Shown: in pieces, positions 473-7,980 of the stretch
Numbering within the stretch: the stretch's first letter is position 1
Layout: every line of letters starts with the position of its first letter
Origin: a plasmid
Reading direction: 5' to 3' (one strand)
DNA: 7,980 bases
Sequence record: NZ_CP121825.1
Notes under the pieces: model-generated
Database searches by the model: none
Told to the model about the DNA's origin: nothing
What the model saw: the letters and a program-made list of their open reading frames with translations, nothing else
Program-made: the position numbers and the translations under genes

Positions 473-715
473 TTAACGGCTGCTGAGATCCACCTCGATG
501 CGGCGAAAACCGATGGTGTGCGCCGTGTTCACCCCGGCATCGATGGTCTTAAAGACCCGCCACCCTCCGCGCTGGCGTTCCAGCACTTCCGTTTCTGCAT
601 TGCGGCCAAACTTCACCAGGTGAAGATGGTAGCCGGCACCCATCGGGGTCGGGGCGATCACCGCCTTGGCAAATCCCCCTTGTTCAAATACCCACTTCGC
701 CTTGATCTCTTCCAT
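473..715 (-). CDS. Conserved hypothetical small protein of 80 aa (MEEIKAKWVFEQGGFAKAVIAPTPMGAGYHLHLVKFGRNAE...).
   Basis: Complete ORF. All 7 nucleotide substitutions against copy 2 within the shared frame are synonymous (GCC/GCT, GTG/GTT, GGG/GGC, GGT/GGG, AAG/AAA, AGC/AGT, CTC/CTA). That argues for real coding on the minus strand. No confident family assignment. Confidence 0.7.
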   Translation of the reverse strand: MEEIKAKWVFEQGGFAKAVIAPTPMGAGYHLHLVKFGRNAETEVLERQRGGWRVFKTIDAGVNTAHTIGFRRIEVDLSSR

Positions 716-2382: not shown

Positions 2383-2481
2383 CGTTTCTGGCGAACAGAA
2401 CAGATCGGGCTGGTAAGGTTCAACCGAGTACTTTCCGAGATCAGCCACGCAACTGGGGAACATATCCAAGCGCATGTGCTG

Positions 2482-2715
2482 ATGACTCGTACCAATCCTA
2501 GCCGCAAGAATTTTGCGGCTATCAGCGATGAACTAACAAGGCTGCCGCACCTCACCATGATGACCTCCAAGTTGAGCCGACGGGCAGACTGGGCCAACCA
2601 GATGGAGTCCGGCTTGGGAGTAACGGAGAGAGCAGCAACTCGCAGCAGCGCAGCGGGAATGGAGGCGAAAGCATTAGCGGAAGAAGTGCGGGAAAAACTT
2701 GCCTCGCTCGCTTAA
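2482..2715 (+). CDS. Hypothetical 77-aa protein (MTRTNPSRKNFAAISDELTRLPHL...). It lies in a 245-bp segment present only in element 1.
   Basis: ORF with an internal ATG. Only the last 20 codons or so are retained in element 2. No family recognised. Confidence 0.25.
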   Translation: MTRTNPSRKNFAAISDELTRLPHLTMMTSKLSRRADWANQMESGLGVTERAATRSSAAGMEAKALAEEVREKLASLA

Positions 2716-2734
2716 TGATATTAATTTAATATCA
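2716..2734. promoter_or_regulatory. 19-bp perfect palindrome TGATATTAAtTTAATATCA. It lies 25 bp upstream of the small ribbon-helix-helix-like gene and is a likely operator overlapping its promoter.
   Basis: Conserved exactly at 7872-7890 in element 2. Confidence 0.6.
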
Positions 2735-2758
2735 AATAGATACGAAAGAGATATTAAA

Positions 2759-2999
2759 ATGGCAAGAAAACTAATCAATCTGGATGACCTTGGCGCAGGA
2801 GCCCCCCCTCAAAGAGGTGGTAGCGGCGACTGGCAGCAGAGGGAAGATCCCCACCAAGGCCAAGAATATCCAGAACATGCCGTTGGAGTTTTTTACACGC
2901 CACGCGGCGTTGAGGGAAAAGGGCAATACCAGCTTGCTATTCACTCCGTACATCATCGAAGCAGTCCGCAAAGCACTGGAAGAAGACGAACAGAGCTAA
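2759..2999 (+). pseudogene. Small protein of about 79 aa with a ribbon-helix-helix-like C-terminus (...KIPTKAKNIQNMPLEFFTRHAALREKGNTSLLFTPYIIEAVRKALEEDEQS). It is frameshifted at the 7-C run 2802-2808.
   Basis: Element 2 (7916 onwards) has 6 C and reads straight through from ATG into the ..LKEVV.. frame. Element 1 needs a -1 correction at the C-run to join ATG 2759 to the 2784-2999 frame. Confidence 0.5.
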
Positions 3000-3044
3000 C
3001 AATAGCATCACAGGCCATACCCACCAGTGGGCATGACCTCAACG

Positions 3045-3078
3045 ATAAGGGGCATCCGTTTAACGCAACGCCCCTTAT
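3045..3078. terminator. Hairpin ATAAGGGGC-(16 nt)-GCCCCTTAT between the convergent small gene and the methyltransferase gene. No clear U-run on either strand.
   Basis: A perfect 9-bp stem seen in the sequence. Possible bidirectional terminator, weak. Confidence 0.3.
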
Positions 3079-3121
3079 CTGCACTCAATTCACACTACAA
3101 TTTTGCTTTAAAGATAGATAG

Positions 3122-4186
3122 TCACACCGACTCAGATTGCATCGCAGGCGTCATATCTTGCGAGGCCAAGTTTTGGCACAAATTACAATCCAACGACACC
3201 GTGTCTCCATTCATAATCCGATTGTAAATGCTCAATACATCCTCGTCAGAGACCCCCTTATCTAGGAAGCGAAATGCGGAGGCTGCGACATACTCAGGCT
3301 GCATTTCAAATGAAATCCACTTTCGAGACTCTTTCTCAGCAACCATCCCTGTTGTGTTCGAACCGCCAAAAATGTCTACAACAAGATCACCTGGCTCGGT
3401 CAACATTCTAATAAAAAACTCAGGCAACTTTGCTGGAAATCTAGCTGGGTGGGCCTTAACCCCCACAATTTTGCAACCAGCTTGATACTGCCCATTTGAC
3501 TCAGAGTTTGGTATTTGCAGCAAATTAGGAGGAATTGCCCCTCCATTGTCATTTGCAAATGACTTCCCTATGTCATGACCGGAAGGTCTAACTTTTGGAG
3601 TATAAAATTTATCTGGATCCTCCAACAGTTTTTTCATGCGATCACTATATGGAGCCAAAACTTTAGTTATATCTGATTTTGGCCATTCCGTTTTGCTGAA
3701 CCACCAAACAGTATTAACAGCATCTTTAACCCGGATTTTTCTTTTATTAACCCACTCGATTGGGCTTGGTAGCTTAGAAGGATTAAACCAATAGAAATCT
3801 TCCGCCAAGAAGAAACCCACTTCATCAATCATCCTAATCAAAACCCTAAAGTTATATAGACTTCTTGCTGGCACCCCTTTCATATAGGCACCACCAAAAT
3901 CAACAACAAAACTACCGTCAGGCTTTAACTTTTTAAAAACCACTTTTGCAAAAGATAAAAACCAATCCACGTATTCATGCTGCTCTAAATTTCCATATTC
4001 TTTTTTCCGCTGCAACGCAAACGGAGGGCTGGTCATAACCAAGCTAACGCTCTCGTCCTGAAGAGACTCAAGAAGTTCCAGCGAGTCACCAATGTAAACA
4101 GCCCCGTTACTTGTTGTATAGGCAGGACAAATATCACTTTTCAACATCTTGTTGCTACTCATAGTCTGTAGATTCAAAGTCTTCAC
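3122..4186 (-). CDS. pvuIIM: Beta-class amino-DNA methyltransferase of the M.PvuII type (probably N4-cytosine), 354 aa.
   Basis: Motif IV TSPPF lies near the N-terminus and motif I DIFGGSNTTG near the C-terminus, which is beta-class order. GTG start at 4186 with in-frame ATGs at codons 9 and 14, which parallels the two-start arrangement of M.PvuII. It is divergently arranged with the C and R genes. Confidence 0.9.
   Translation of the reverse strand: MKTLNLQTMSSNKMLKSDICPAYTTSNGAVYIGDSLELLESLQDESVSLVMTSPPFALQRKKEYGNLEQHEYVDWFLSFAKVVFKKLKPDGSFVVDFGGAYMKGVPARSLYNFRVLIRMIDEVGFFLAEDFYWFNPSKLPSPIEWVNKRKIRVKDAVNTVWWFSKTEWPKSDITKVLAPYSDRMKKLLEDPDKFYTPKVRPSGHDIGKSFANDNGGAIPPNLLQIPNSESNGQYQAGCKIVGVKAHPARFPAKLPEFFIRMLTEPGDLVVDIFGGSNTTGMVAEKESRKWISFEMQPEYVAASAFRFLDKGVSDEDVLSIYNRIMNGDTVSLDCNLCQNLASQDMTPAMQSESV
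4156..4181. promoter_or_regulatory. Tandem C-boxes: tACTcatAGTC-TGTA-GATTcaaAGTC. Predicted binding site for the C protein and an activator/operator for the leaderless C-R transcript.
   Basis: Matches the GACT-n3-AGTC half-site pattern with a TGTA centre. It sits 24 bp upstream of the C-gene ATG and inside the N-terminal codons of the methyltransferase gene, as in PvuII. Confidence 0.6.
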
Positions 4187-4204
4187 GCGCTCATTATCTC
4201 GCGT

Positions 4205-4434
4205 ATGACAAAGAATAGAAACCCCTTATCCGCCAGAAAAATACTAGCCCACAACCTCAAAGAAAAGCGGGGGGGGAGCTAGGCCTATCACAAGAAGCTT
4301 TAGCTGACATGGCTGGGCTCCATAGAACTTATGTTGGTTCAGTAGAACGAGCAGAAAGAAACATATCCATAGATAACATTGAACGCCTAGCAAAAGCGCT
4401 CAATGTTCATCCATCATCTCTACTAATGGAATAG
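4205..4434 (+). pseudogene. pvuIIC: Controller (C) protein gene of the XRE helix-turn-helix family. It is frameshifted in the 8-G run 4269-4276.
   Basis: The first frame gives MTKNRNPLSARKILAHNLKEKRGG. The second gives LGLSQEALADMAGLHRTYVGSVERAERNISIDNIERLAKALNV. Joined, they make a typical 76-aa C protein. Nine G would be in frame. Confidence 0.8.
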
Positions 4435-4439
4435 AAGTA

Positions 4440-4920
4440 ATGTCTCATAACGATTTTGAAAAATTAAAAAAAACTATGGCCAAACATCCAGGAATACCAA
4501 GAGCTGGCAACTAAACACGGCATAAAGGATATATTTCAAGATAACGGAGGAAAACTTCTTCAGGTAATTTTAATAACGAACCTACAGGTTCTAAGCGGTA
4601 GGGAGGGTAATGATGCAGTTGATATTAATGGACAGGAGTACGAACTAAAGTCAATCAATATCGATCTAACAAAGGGCTTCTCTACTCATCATCACATGAA
4701 CCCTACAATCATTGCAAAGTACAGAAAGGTTCCATGGATATTTGCCATATACAAAAACATTGAACTCCAGGAGATATATCAGTTGGAGCCAGGTGATTTG
4801 GAATGTTACTATTCCAAGTGGGAGCAAAAATGGCATGAAGATGGAGGGAAGGACATTAACAACCCCAAAATCCCTGTTAGTTTTGTAATAGAAGTCGGAA
4901 AAAAAATATACCCTCAGTGA
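4440..4920 (+). pseudogene. pvuIIR: Restriction endonuclease gene homologous to R.PvuII, about 159 aa. It is frameshifted in the 8-A run 4466-4473.
   Basis: After the frameshift the translation is ..[81 protein letters not shown]. It shows high identity to R.PvuII as I recall it, including the catalytic D..E.K. Seven A would be in frame. The gene starts 5 bp after the C-gene stop. Confidence 0.9.
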
Positions 4921-4989
4921 CTTATAATCGCCAAGGATGGTTCGATTTCTTTACTGCGAGCCAAAAAGTCAACCCGTAACACTAAAAGT

Positions 4990-5017
4990 GGTGCGCATAA
5001 CGCCTTTTATGTTAAAC
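4990..5017. other. Second dif-like XerC/XerD site. GGTGCGCATAA-CGCCTT-TTATGTTAAAC.
   Basis: Same XerC arm and central region as site 1. The XerD arm has one mismatch to the canonical dif arm. It marks the start of the second repeated element. Confidence 0.75.
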
Positions 5018-5391
5018 CACGACTTTTAGCGGCTAAAACGGGGCACAGGCGGCAAACAGGCCGCCTGTATCGCGTTTTGGGGCGTTTCGACACACAAGGC
5101 AGGGCATTTGCAGCCTGAAAGTTTGCAACGCTTCTGAGGCGTTTTTAGGGGCGGAGCCTGCGGGGTATGGTTTTAGCCCGTTTTAGCGGCCTATCGCGCA
5201 TTAGTCTCGGTTGCCCTCCGAGCGTGTCCGACGGACGCCTGCGGGGGCCAATAGGTGAAGCAAAACGGAGTCCATCAATGGTGGGGCCAGCGGCCCCACC
5301 CTGTGGAGATCAGGGCAACACTCCCAAACGGGAGCGACTAGCGCAGTCTGTCGCGCTTCGTTCGGGAGTCGGCAAGCGCAGCGCGGCAGCC

Positions 5392-5635
5392 TTAACGACT
5401 GCTTAGATCCACCTCGATGCGGCGAAAACCGATGGTGTGCGCCGTGTTAACCCCAGCATCGATGGTCTTAAAGACCCGCCAGCCTCCGCGCTGGCGTTCC
5501 AGCACTTCCGTTTCTGCATTGCGGCCAAACTTCACCAGGTGAAGATGGTAGCCGGCCCCCATCGGGGTCGGGGCGATCACCGCTTTGGCAAAGCCCCCCT
5601 TGTTCAAATACCCACTTCGCCTTGATCTCTTCCAT
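5392..5635 (-). pseudogene. Second copy of the 80-aa gene. The N-terminus is frameshifted by one extra nucleotide at a C-run (6 C at 5594-5599 against 5 C in copy 1).
   Basis: The C-terminal 62 aa are identical to copy 1. The frame breaks at the homopolymer. Confidence 0.6.
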
Positions 5636-5994
5636 ATCAAAAACCTGTTTTGATGATTCATATCTACGTTATGACACCAACGCAGCTAAACATCAAATTA
5701 TAATTATGAATAATCAAATTCTAATTTTGATTGGTATTACTCAGGTTCGTAGAACCGCACTCGGGTTTCAAAGGGGGCGACCCTTTGGCACGCCGATAGG
5801 ATGCAGGCACGCCGACGGTACAAACGCAGTTTGTATACGTTCGGTCTCGTGCCTGTATACAGTCGGTGTCGTGCCTGTCTGTTTCTTCAATTTCTGTATG
5901 CACCTACAAAAAACCCACATAAAGGAAGCATAAAGAAGGCGATAGGGAATCAATTGGGGTGCATTTAGAAACCATTAAGGTCATATAAAACCTA

Positions 5995-6011
5995 CAGATA
6001 GATACTATCTG
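5995..6011. promoter_or_regulatory. 17-bp palindrome CAGATAGatACTATCTG upstream of the 176-aa ORF.
   Basis: Perfect 7-bp arms. The direct repeat GCATTCT occurs twice just downstream. Confidence 0.4.
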
Positions 6012-6062
6012 GGTAGCATTCTGGTACATTGGTGGGCATTCTCACTGAAAAATGACGCCGCC

Positions 6063-6593
6063 ATGCTGCCGAAACCAAGCAATAAATTCATTCCAAAGAT
6101 CGAGTCATACCTCCACCAAGGGGAGGTATCAAAACCCAAGGCAAAAGTAATCGCCCACGTCTATCCAGAAGTGGAGACGATGATCGAACAAGGCTTTTCC
6201 CTTACTCAAATCGTGGCGGCCATCAATGCGAACGATGTGGGCTTTACCATCACACTTGCCACCTTCAAAAACACCCTGCATAGGCTGCGCAAGCGCCAGA
6301 TTCAACAAGCACCGACACCGAAGAACATCACACAGCCAGCCCGTAACGCATTCCGCGAGAGGCCAAAAAAGATTCAGCACGATAACAATCCTGATCTTGA
6401 TGCGCTGCTAGATAGGCTGGGAGCTGAAGCGGGAACCTTGGCTGACTACTTAAAGGTGTGTTTCAACTCGGAATCTATCGCCAACAGGGCCATAGAGGCT
6501 GGGGTATCCATAGAGGAAATTAGGTCATGGGAATGCCCGAACCAGATCCGGCTTGGCACAAGGTTAAGCCACTTCATTAGAAGTGCATCATAA
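6063..6593 (+). CDS. Hypothetical 176-aa protein unique to element 2, with a possible helix-turn-helix segment (GFSLTQIVAAINANDVGFTITLATFKNTLHRLRKRQ).
   Basis: Long ORF occupying the slot where element 1 has the iterons. There is no clear Shine-Dalgarno at ATG 6063, and an alternative start exists near 6181 after GGAG. No confident family assignment. Confidence 0.45.
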   Translation: MLPKPSNKFIPKIESYLHQGEVSKPKAKVIAHVYPEVETMIEQGFSLTQIVAAINANDVGFTITLATFKNTLHRLRKRQIQQAPTPKNITQPARNAFRERPKKIQHDNNPDLDALLDRLGAEAGTLADYLKVCFNSESIANRAIEAGVSIEEIRSWECPNQIRLGTRLSHFIRSAS

Positions 6594-6603
6594 AGGTAAA
6601 GTG

Positions 6604-6813
6604 ATGAGTCAAAATTTAAATTTGATTGCTACGGGGAAAGAGCAATTCAGCCGATACCATGTTGCCGACTACCTGACGAACCGTGCAGACGTCTCGGCCT
6701 ACCTCAAAGCCGCCAAGGAAGAGAACGATCCGGCCCTCCTCGCTGCCGTCATGGAAGACATCCGCCAAATAGAAGCGGTGCAACATGCCAGCAAAACGCG
6801 AATCCTGCCATAG
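6604..6813 (+). CDS. Second copy of the HigA-N-like small protein. Its N-terminal half is divergent, and there is an alternative upstream ATG at 6583.
   Basis: AAGGTAAAG Shine-Dalgarno before ATG 6604. The C-terminal 35 aa are identical to copy 1, while the N-terminal half is only about 50% identical. Confidence 0.6.
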   Translation: MSQNLNLIATGKEQFSRYHVADYLTNRADVSAYLKAAKEENDPALLAAVMEDIRQIEAVQHASKTRILP

Positions 6814-6861
6814 CCATAGAGCAGCCATGAATTTCGTACGTACGAAGAAAAGAGGCACCCA

Positions 6862-7044
6862 GTGACATATCAGAAGCTGACGAAACAAGAACTCACCGAG
6901 CTACTGGAGGAAATGAGGGCGGCCGGAGAATGGGCTAAAGCCGTTTTGGAACAAGAGCGGCGGCAAACGCTAGCACATTGCGAATCCTGCACTAGCACCT
7001 CAAATTTCGTACGTACGAAAAAACCAACCCAGCTCCGTGGATAA
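6862..7044 (+). CDS. Second copy of the 60-aa GTG-start ORF.
   Basis: AAGAGG Shine-Dalgarno upstream. Same frame and length as the element-1 copy. Confidence 0.45.
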   Translation: MTYQKLTKQELTELLEEMRAAGEWAKAVLEQERRQTLAHCESCTSTSNFVRTKKPTQLRG

Positions 7045-7784
7045 GCCCTACTGCCCACAGGCCAAACACACGGCCTGATGGACAGCCCTTCGGGAACGGG
7101 CTTAACCACCTCGCCAAGATCCTCTCTCGATGATGAAGAGAGCAAAAACAACGGCCTAAAGGCCGTGCAAAAAAAGATGTCGCAAAGCTCCCCAGTTAGC
7201 CGGCTCTCCTATCGTTCCGCTGCGCTTCAAGATAGGAGAGCCCTCCTGCTTGGCTACGTTAAAAATGACGTAGTTACACAAGATTGACTCGCCTTGCTCC
7301 GGACTATCGAGACTGCTTGCGGCAGCTCCCTCTCACGCGCTCCAGAGACACACCCCGTCCTTGCTGCATCTGCTTTAGTCCCCGCCTGATGGCCAGACTG
7401 CCGCGCCGTTTTTTAAGAGCTGGCCGTGGTTGGTTCCCCGTTACGCTCTGCTTGCAAATGCCCCACGGTTGCGAATCGTGGGCGGCAGTGGTGCGCGATC
7501 GCACGCTGGGCAGTATGTGAGATTTCCCCGTTCTGCCCGACCAACCACACCCACAAACGGCAACAAACTCATGCTTCCAATCCGTGCGGGTACGACAAAG
7601 CGCCAAAGGTGGTGGCCTTCGGTAACGGGTCGAGTTGCGGGAAAAGCTTGATTGAATGGCCGAATGGCCGCTAAACTGATTAGGACTTTTGGTAGCTGCT
7701 TCCCGCACGGAGCCGTTACCAGGTGAAGTCGGTTCCCCAACTGACAACACCTTCGAAGAAACCGCCCTGCAAGGCGGTTTTTTC
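7045..7784 (+). ncRNA. Candidate large structured RNA, copy 2.
   Basis: Homologous to 1642-2382, with compensatory changes in three helices. Confidence 0.5.
7758..7784 (+). terminator. Rho-independent terminator, copy 2: AAACCGCCctgcaaGGCGGTTTTTT.
   Basis: The stem is preserved by a compensatory A:T to G:C change relative to copy 1. Confidence 0.8.
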
Positions 7785-7915
7785 GTTTCTGGTGCAACTG
7801 CAGCAGCGCAGCGGGAATGGAGGCGAAAGCATTAGCGGAAGAAGTGCGGGAAAAACTTGTTGCTCGCTTAATGATATTAATTTAATATCAAAATAGATAC
7901 GAAAGAGATATTAAA

Positions 7916-7980
7916 ATGGAAGAAAAAACCGCTAATCAATCTGATGACCTTGGCGCAGGAGCCCCCCTCAAAGAGGTGGT
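7916..7980 (+). CDS. Start of the second copy of the small ribbon-helix-helix-like protein (MEEKTANQSDDLGAGAPLKEVV...). It is truncated by the end of the window.
   Basis: In frame through the 6-C run. The same operator palindrome lies upstream. Confidence 0.45.
   Translation, partial: MEEKTANQSDDLGAGAPLKEV

Follow-up and report, generated by a model that had tools for sequence, protein, structure and literature searches.

The window, by which we mean the whole stretch of DNA analysed here, is the entire 7,980-nt record of a ColE1-type plasmid of Aeromonas veronii, and its proteins are represented in RefSeq by entries WP_281441138.1 to WP_281441143.1. It contains two copies of a backbone of the Aeromonas small-plasmid type (positions 1-2393 and 4983-7793), which have diverged to 82 to 94% identity, depending on the segment. 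Each copy carries a ColE1-type replicon with an RNAI match on the plus strand, at 2281-2385 in copy 1 and at 7684-7786 in copy 2; the T-run of the copy 1 RNAI terminator (2376-2382) has seven T residues here versus six in relatives. Between the two backbone copies lie, in this order, a 3′ remnant of parA (2394-2715, plus strand, about 107 of 211 codons), a parG-like open reading frame (ORF), and a restriction-modification (R-M) cassette, the latter with a G+C content of 41% versus 53 to 55% in the backbone.

The cassette consists of three genes. The methyltransferase gene M (3122-4186, minus strand) is open, encodes a product that matches the N4/N6 DNA methyltransferase family (PF01555, E = 1e-47) and is 87% identical to M.PvuII, and is transcribed divergently from the C and R genes. 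Exact-protein look-ups found the 341-aa form of this protein (3122-4147) on 19 other contigs, whereas the same look-ups with the 354-aa form (GTG start) and the 346-aa form (ATG start) returned no match. The controller gene C (4205-4434, plus strand, ATG at 4205) and the endonuclease gene R (4440-4920, plus strand, ATG at 4440) are both frameshifted as written. Read with six G residues in its G tract, C encodes a 75-aa protein with an HTH_3 match (E = 4e-17) and 72% identity to C.PvuII. Read with seven A residues in its A tract, R encodes a product of 159 aa. This protein aligns to positions 2-155 of the 155-position PF09225 profile (E = 7e-66), is 77% identical to R.PvuII and 97 to 99% identical to the intact proteins P0141-P0146, and retains in the alignment the R.PvuII segments NDAVD, YELK, STHHH, and DINNPKIP. 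A C-box operator, TACTcatAGTCtgtaGATTcaaAGTC (4156-4181, no strand assigned), sits between the divergent M and C starts, overlapping them, and agrees with the wild-type PvuII C-boxes at 26 of 26 positions (PMC2175313). The first-pass annotation, which was made from the sequence alone, had described a type II R-M system made up of C and R genes and an M that is intact, and the PF01555, PF09225, HTH_3, and C-box matches bear this description out. Judged by these similarities, the cassette belongs to the PvuII family of C-controlled type II R-M systems, and its recognition sequence is presumably CAGCTG, with m4C as the presumed modification; the window has no CAGCTG site versus 2.4 expected, a difference that is not significant.

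The closest known system is the C-controlled Type IIP system (pvuIIM, pvuIIC, pvuIIR) of the Proteus plasmid pPvu1, likewise a small ColE1-type plasmid, in which M also diverges from C followed by R. In addition to the identical operator, the levels of protein identity given above (87% for M, 72% for C, 77% for R) tie the two cassettes together. They differ in that the C protein of the window has 75 aa rather than 84 and its gene does not overlap R (C stop codon at 4432-4434, R start codon at 4440), in that the backbone belongs to an Aeromonas plasmid family, and in the frameshifts that C and R contain as written. In PLSDB, there is no close copy of the cassette and only pPvu1 matches it, at 75%; a scan of genome_contigs found no relatives of R closer than 77%. 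Much closer are the sister cassettes from Aeromonas (contigs L107-L133, with C protein P0294, R proteins P0141-P0146, and M protein WP_281441142.1), which share 97 to 99% DNA identity with the window over 2.6 kb, the identical 341-aa M, a C that is identical after removal of two G residues, and the neighboring parA and parG-like genes. These cassettes have G6 or GTGGGG in C, A7 or an interrupted A tract in R, C6 in the parG-like gene, and a complete parA; the window alone departs from this pattern, with G8, A8, and C7 and with parA truncated.

The two tracts of interest lie on the plus strand at 4269-4276 (eight G, in C) and 4466-4473 (eight A, in R). The G8 tract shifts the frame of C past codon 22, so that its ORF ends after 25 codons (MTKNRNPLSARKILAHNLKEKRGGS followed by a stop); the A8 tract ends the ORF of R after 24 codons. 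As written, the reading frames of the endonuclease and of its controller are thus both closed; seven A residues would restore R, and either six or nine G residues would restore C. That both tracts are present, that each breaks its gene, and that M is intact had been noted in the first-pass annotation and is confirmed in the sequence. That annotation had further put each gene off by a single nucleotide, with nine G and seven A as the intact lengths, which is right for R; C is off by two, with six G in its relatives. It had also pointed out two other tract-length differences between the repeat copies: C7 at 2802-2808 versus C6 at 7962-7967, and C6 at 5594-5599 versus C5 at 675-679. The lengths are as described, but the differences are not neutral, each of them breaking an ORF. 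The C7 run (plus strand) is one longer than the C6 of 16 to 18 relatives and disrupts the 79-aa parG-like ORF (2759-2999), which is intact with C6 in the relatives. The C6 run at 5594-5599 (G6 on the coding strand, which is the minus strand) is one longer than the five of 9 to 13 relatives and of backbone copy 1, and it disrupts copy 2 of a conserved 80-aa ORF (5392-5635). Copy 1 of that ORF (473-715, minus strand) is intact, and its exact protein occurs in 2,757 index blocks.

Homopolymers of this length are in themselves unremarkable. A single G8 run is observed in the window versus 0.34 expected, a count reached in 44 of 200 shuffles, and two A8 runs versus 1.49 expected, reached in 80 of 200 shuffles. 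Runs of eight are therefore not above chance, and what significance they have comes only from the comparison with relatives. The second A8 run is near the 3′ end of R (4899-4906, plus strand); its length is shared by 19 relatives, and correcting the tract at 4466-4473 puts it in frame. In one contig, L124, this run is A7, which alters the last few residues of R and yields a 161-aa product; this is the only run-length polymorphism found among the relatives.

Relatives were gathered with the intact M and the repaired R as baits and then by exact-protein look-ups; they are mostly short-read Logan assemblies from different samples. The main comparison covered window positions 2394-4968 (2.6 kb) and 17 nonredundant contigs that are 97 to 99% identical to it. 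The G site has six positions in 20 of 20 related contigs and in pPvu1, reading GGGGGG in most of them and GTGGGG, GGGGAG, GGGGAA, GGGGCA, or GAGGCG in the others. The A site is A7 in four relatives, the closest ones, and is interrupted (AAAACAA or AAAAAAC) in the rest. G8 and A8 are expansions that are private to one contig, from G6 to G8 and from A7 to A8. The C protein read with six G is identical to the database protein P0294, which is encoded on 10 other contigs, whereas the protein read with nine G is absent from a collection of about 15 billion proteins; nine G was rejected as the true C allele on these grounds. A pattern scan of metagenome_contigs and viral_contigs that let the G tract vary in length matched nothing, and the window comes from neither collection. 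Programmed ribosomal frameshifting in R at A AAA AAA C was also considered and rejected, since a +1 shift would be needed and this heptamer promotes a −1 shift, and since the relatives encode R in a single frame.

Compared with the 17 contigs, the window has only three indels in 2394-4968, namely +1 C, +2 G, and +1 A, and each of them breaks a separate gene. No other contig on record has the ORFs (89, 74, and 71 aa) that these frameshifts create. RefSeq treats two frameshift products as ordinary hypothetical proteins, a 129-aa fragment of R (WP_281441143.1; 4531-4920, with a nonstandard start) and a 71-aa fragment of the parG-like protein (WP_281441141.1; 2784-2999), and does not label either of them as a frameshifted pseudogene.

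In a broader comparison, every run of at least three bases was set against its modal length in relatives, about 350 runs in all. All of the differences were expansions, with no contractions, and the odds of a difference grew with run length and were highest in G/C runs. Among G/C runs, expansion was seen in both of those with a modal length of 6, in one of four with a modal length of 5, and in 2 of 40 with a modal length of 4. For A/T runs, the corresponding counts were one of one at length 7, none of one at length 8, and 1 of 10 at length 6. An A6-to-A7 change at 7169-7175 was scored against two more distant relatives, and the 6-nt A/T runs for which close relatives are available have the correct length. 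Genes that have escaped expansion are M and copy 1 of the 80-aa ORF, with C5, T6, and A6 runs, and a 176-aa ORF with an A6 run.

The branch leading to the window carries 13 substitutions and 3 indel events, versus 118 and 4 in the tree of the relatives (Poisson P = 0.01). Its private substitutions (at 2499, 2728, 2766, 3042, 3173, 3470, 3758, 3928, 3968, 4437, 4450, 4482, and 4746) comprise 12 transitions and 1 transversion, versus 75:39 among the relatives (Fisher P = 0.06). All five that fall in M are synonymous; those in R are two synonymous and one nonsynonymous, with no other indels. Beyond the two tracts, neither C nor R bears marks of decay; C once repaired is identical to a natural protein, and nonsense changes are absent. 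A separate R lesion is found in the short-read contigs L127 and L128, which come from different samples. Both carry a −1 change in R at the equivalent of window positions 4546-4548 (GGAGGAAAAC to GGGGGAAGC) with C and M intact, a state that suggests natural restriction loss within this plasmid lineage.

The first-pass annotation had raised the prospect that C and R are phase-variable. Under that proposal, the two tracts are contingency loci in which slipped-strand mispairing toggles C and R, so that restriction switches on and off while M stays on. Some properties of the tracts would suit it: runs of eight are at the lower edge of the lengths that slip appreciably, a single step would restore each frame (G8 to G9, which adds one Gly, and A8 to A7), and the A7 state of the 3′ run in L124 points to some run-length variation in the lineage. 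However, the G and A tracts show no length variation across 17 to 20 near-identical relatives from many samples, with the G site fixed at six positions and the A site at seven or interrupted. The functional state has merely six G or seven A, and other bases interrupt the tracts in most relatives (GTGGGG, GGGGAG, AAAACAA, and AAAAAAC), so that they are not conserved as tracts. The 9-G product that a one-step switch of C would make is the one absent from the protein collection, both tracts would have to be in frame at the same time, and the same kind of expansion in the parG-like and 80-aa genes argues against a design specific to the R-M system. In the phase-variable R-M systems of Haemophilus, Neisseria, and Helicobacter, a homopolymer (poly-G or poly-C) in an R-M gene likewise sets the frame. 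Unlike those tracts, the ones in the window are short, interrupted in relatives, and invariant; phase-variable tracts in Type I hsdS and Type III mod genes are longer, are conserved as tracts, and are polymorphic among strains. Phase variation is not supported by these data, and we consider it very improbable. We assign an equally slim chance to its most elaborate form, a contingency switch with two locks on a mobile plasmid, in which hypermutable tracts in the activator and in the endonuclease would be mixed in length within the multicopy population, possibly with low-level R made by transcriptional slippage.

Transcriptional slippage on long A/T runs does occur in bacteria, and it offers a further way to keep R alive: the frameshifts would be real and partly bypassed, RNA polymerase slippage on A8 giving some transcripts with seven A and hence an attenuated system. 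The R frame would indeed be regained if the transcript lost one A. Against this, C is broken too, in a G run that would need −2 or +1, and C is required for activation of the CR promoter; eight A residues are few for efficient slippage; and the relatives encode R directly in one frame. We consider such a bypass less probable still than phase variation.

What remains are the two fall-back explanations of the first-pass annotation, a homopolymer sequencing error and an inactivated system with a solitary M, both of which survive the comparison. The observations that either has to account for are that the expansions are private, confined to homopolymers, unidirectional, and located in four unrelated ORFs, and that their removal restores natural or near-natural proteins. 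From these we tentatively infer a technical rather than a biological cause, and we give an even chance to an error in homopolymer length that arose in sequencing or assembly, which makes it our leading explanation by a narrow margin. G8 and A8 are best read as members of a series of homopolymer expansions across the contig, which disrupts two unrelated genes as well, and not as a built-in switch. Given a technical cause, the real plasmid would carry an intact, ordinary PvuII-family C-controlled R-M cassette. In favor of such an error are the three expansions as the only indels in 2394-4968, each in a separate gene, and the fourth private +1 (5594-5599) in a gene whose first copy is intact; the uniform direction of all length differences among about 350 comparable runs; and the excess of indels on the window branch, 3:13 versus 4:118. 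To these can be added the lack of any other sign of decay, the repaired C being an exact natural protein, and the fact that the frameshift-made ORFs are known from this contig alone, with no second assembly having the alleles. Base rates point the same way, since a small plasmid with four real frameshifts is a much rarer thing than an error-prone assembly.

The finer features of the expansions fit less well with this explanation. Errors of the Nanopore, Ion Torrent, PacBio, and 454 platforms are similarly confined to homopolymers, shift the frames of several unrelated genes, and appear in a single assembly. However, under-calls predominate among the consensus errors published for Nanopore, Ion Torrent, and PacBio RS II (PMC12007338, PMC12046094, PMC4687164), and the Nanopore and Ion Torrent papers among these three describe A/T runs as the most affected. 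In the window, all of the differences would be over-calls, G/C runs are the most affected, one run of six has gained two bases, and the longest A run, the A8 at 4899-4906, is correct; this profile does not match those published for these three platforms. The remaining sequence appears to be error-free, with the five private substitutions in M all synonymous. The contig is absent from PLSDB and yet has proteins in RefSeq, which suggests a draft whole-genome shotgun (WGS) contig; draft WGS assemblies are mostly from Illumina data (by the share given in PMC12046094 together with our own estimate), in which such errors are rare. Furthermore, the four broken genes are all plausibly dispensable, and L127 and L128 contain an independent R frameshift in short-read contigs. 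Taken by itself, the error signature favors real mutation.

Real mutation, in the form of genuine replication-slippage changes that have become fixed and have left a solitary M on a decaying two-replicon plasmid, is accordingly a serious competitor, to which we give somewhat less than an even chance. On this account, C would have been lost through G6 to G7 to G8 or in one +2 slip and R through A7 to A8, and the parG-like gene, having lost its partner with parA, and the redundant copy of the 80-aa gene would have decayed likewise. Loss of C would abolish C-dependent activation of the CR promoter, and M would stay under selection as an N4-cytosine methyltransferase. Passage through a host deficient in mismatch repair may have produced the changes. 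The pattern of expansions only, with a bias to G/C runs, a +2 step, and a correct A8, fits slippage in vivo better than it fits platform errors. The predominance of transitions (12:1 versus 75:39, Fisher P = 0.06) goes in the direction expected under mismatch-repair deficiency, and together with the G/C-run expansions it resembles a mismatch-repair-deficient spectrum. Purifying selection on M is consistent with this account (5 of 5 private changes synonymous, exact protein on 19 contigs), as are the truncation of parA in both units, which plausibly left parG free to decay, the duplication of the 80-aa gene, and the independent loss of R with retention of M in L127 and L128.

The known regulation of PvuII systems also agrees with it. 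Transcription of C and R starts from a promoter that C.PvuII-type proteins activate (PMC2175313), and a frameshift in pvuIIC reduces pvuIIR expression by transcriptional polarity (PMC2997769). If real, G8 alone would thus silence restriction; A8 would separately truncate R at codon 24, and the divergently transcribed M would keep methylating. Since both lesions are private to this contig, the C− R− state would be recent. The case for genuine slippage is weakened by the four or five independent steps in unrelated genes that it requires alongside just 13 substitutions per 2.6 kb, every one of these steps being an insertion, by the lack of nonsense changes and nonhomopolymer indels in C and R, and by the fact that no second assembly reproduces any of the alleles; the argument that the broken genes are dispensable is post hoc. 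Known solitary methyltransferases that result from decay of R similarly combine a broken R with an M that is intact and under purifying selection. The window differs from them in that decay of its C and R has gone no further and that no second assembly confirms the lesions.

Either of the two leading explanations is of a known kind, homopolymer assembly error or decay of a restriction gene, and the tracts themselves carry little biological weight. The natural tract lengths are now set from many independent assemblies, at six G in C, seven A in R, six C in the parG-like gene, and five C in the 80-aa gene. Should the changes be real, the window would provide a clean natural C− R− M+ cassette of the PvuII family, and the plasmid might bear a mutator footprint of transitions and G/C-run expansions.

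Some observations concern the history of the cassette and of the plasmid. The M protein clusters at 90% identity or higher with the M proteins of contigs L094-L103, in which the adjoining C-R DNA is only about 78% identical to that of the window, a hint that PvuII-family cassettes on Aeromonas plasmids are mosaics whose M and C-R halves have been exchanged. The parA gene is cut short in both units of the record, to 2394-2715 in one and 7794-7916 in the other. The left junction is shared by both units and lies directly past the RNAI terminator (L110 position 197/198); the right junctions are unlike, at L110 positions 740 and 981. For the first remnant, the junction at 2393/2394 corresponds to L110 position 740, and the sister contigs have a complete parA. 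This arrangement suggests a hot spot of recombination or cargo exchange beside the replicon.

With its two diverged ColE1-type replicons, the record looks like a heterodimer or cointegrate of related small plasmids. Its ends match internal sequence: positions 1-30 are the same as 4983-5012, and 7943-7980 resemble 2784-2821, both ends of the record sitting exactly on homology boundaries. The record may close as a circle, in which case unit B lacks the R-M cassette, or it may be an assembly path that stopped at a repeat. The proposal that the 7980-to-1 junction is a microhomology deletion was dropped, as neither GTGGT copy is missing. An error-laden second pass over a single plasmid was ruled out as the source of backbone copy 2, given that the copies differ mainly by substitutions. 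The two copies also resemble different natural relatives, positions 7597-7793 being 100% identical to L110 and positions 2194-2391 only 83.5%.

Finally, the backbone contains several repeated elements. A 14-nt palindrome, TTCGTACGTACGAA, occurs twice in each copy (1429-1442 and 1603-1616; 6833-6846 and 7006-7019) versus a chance expectation of none, and in each copy the pair flanks a short ORF with a GTG start (MTYQ...); the palindrome may be a protein-binding site. Iteron-like tandem repeats are found at 982-1080 and 1111-1181 in copy 1 and at 911-964 and 5832-5878. They are built from an 11/22-nt unit, ACCTACAGAAT, in 9 copies and a 12-nt unit, CCACAAAAAGAC, in about 5 copies, both of them in backbone copy 1 only, and from a 22-nt unit, TGTATAC..GGTCTCGTGCC, that is present in both backbone copies.
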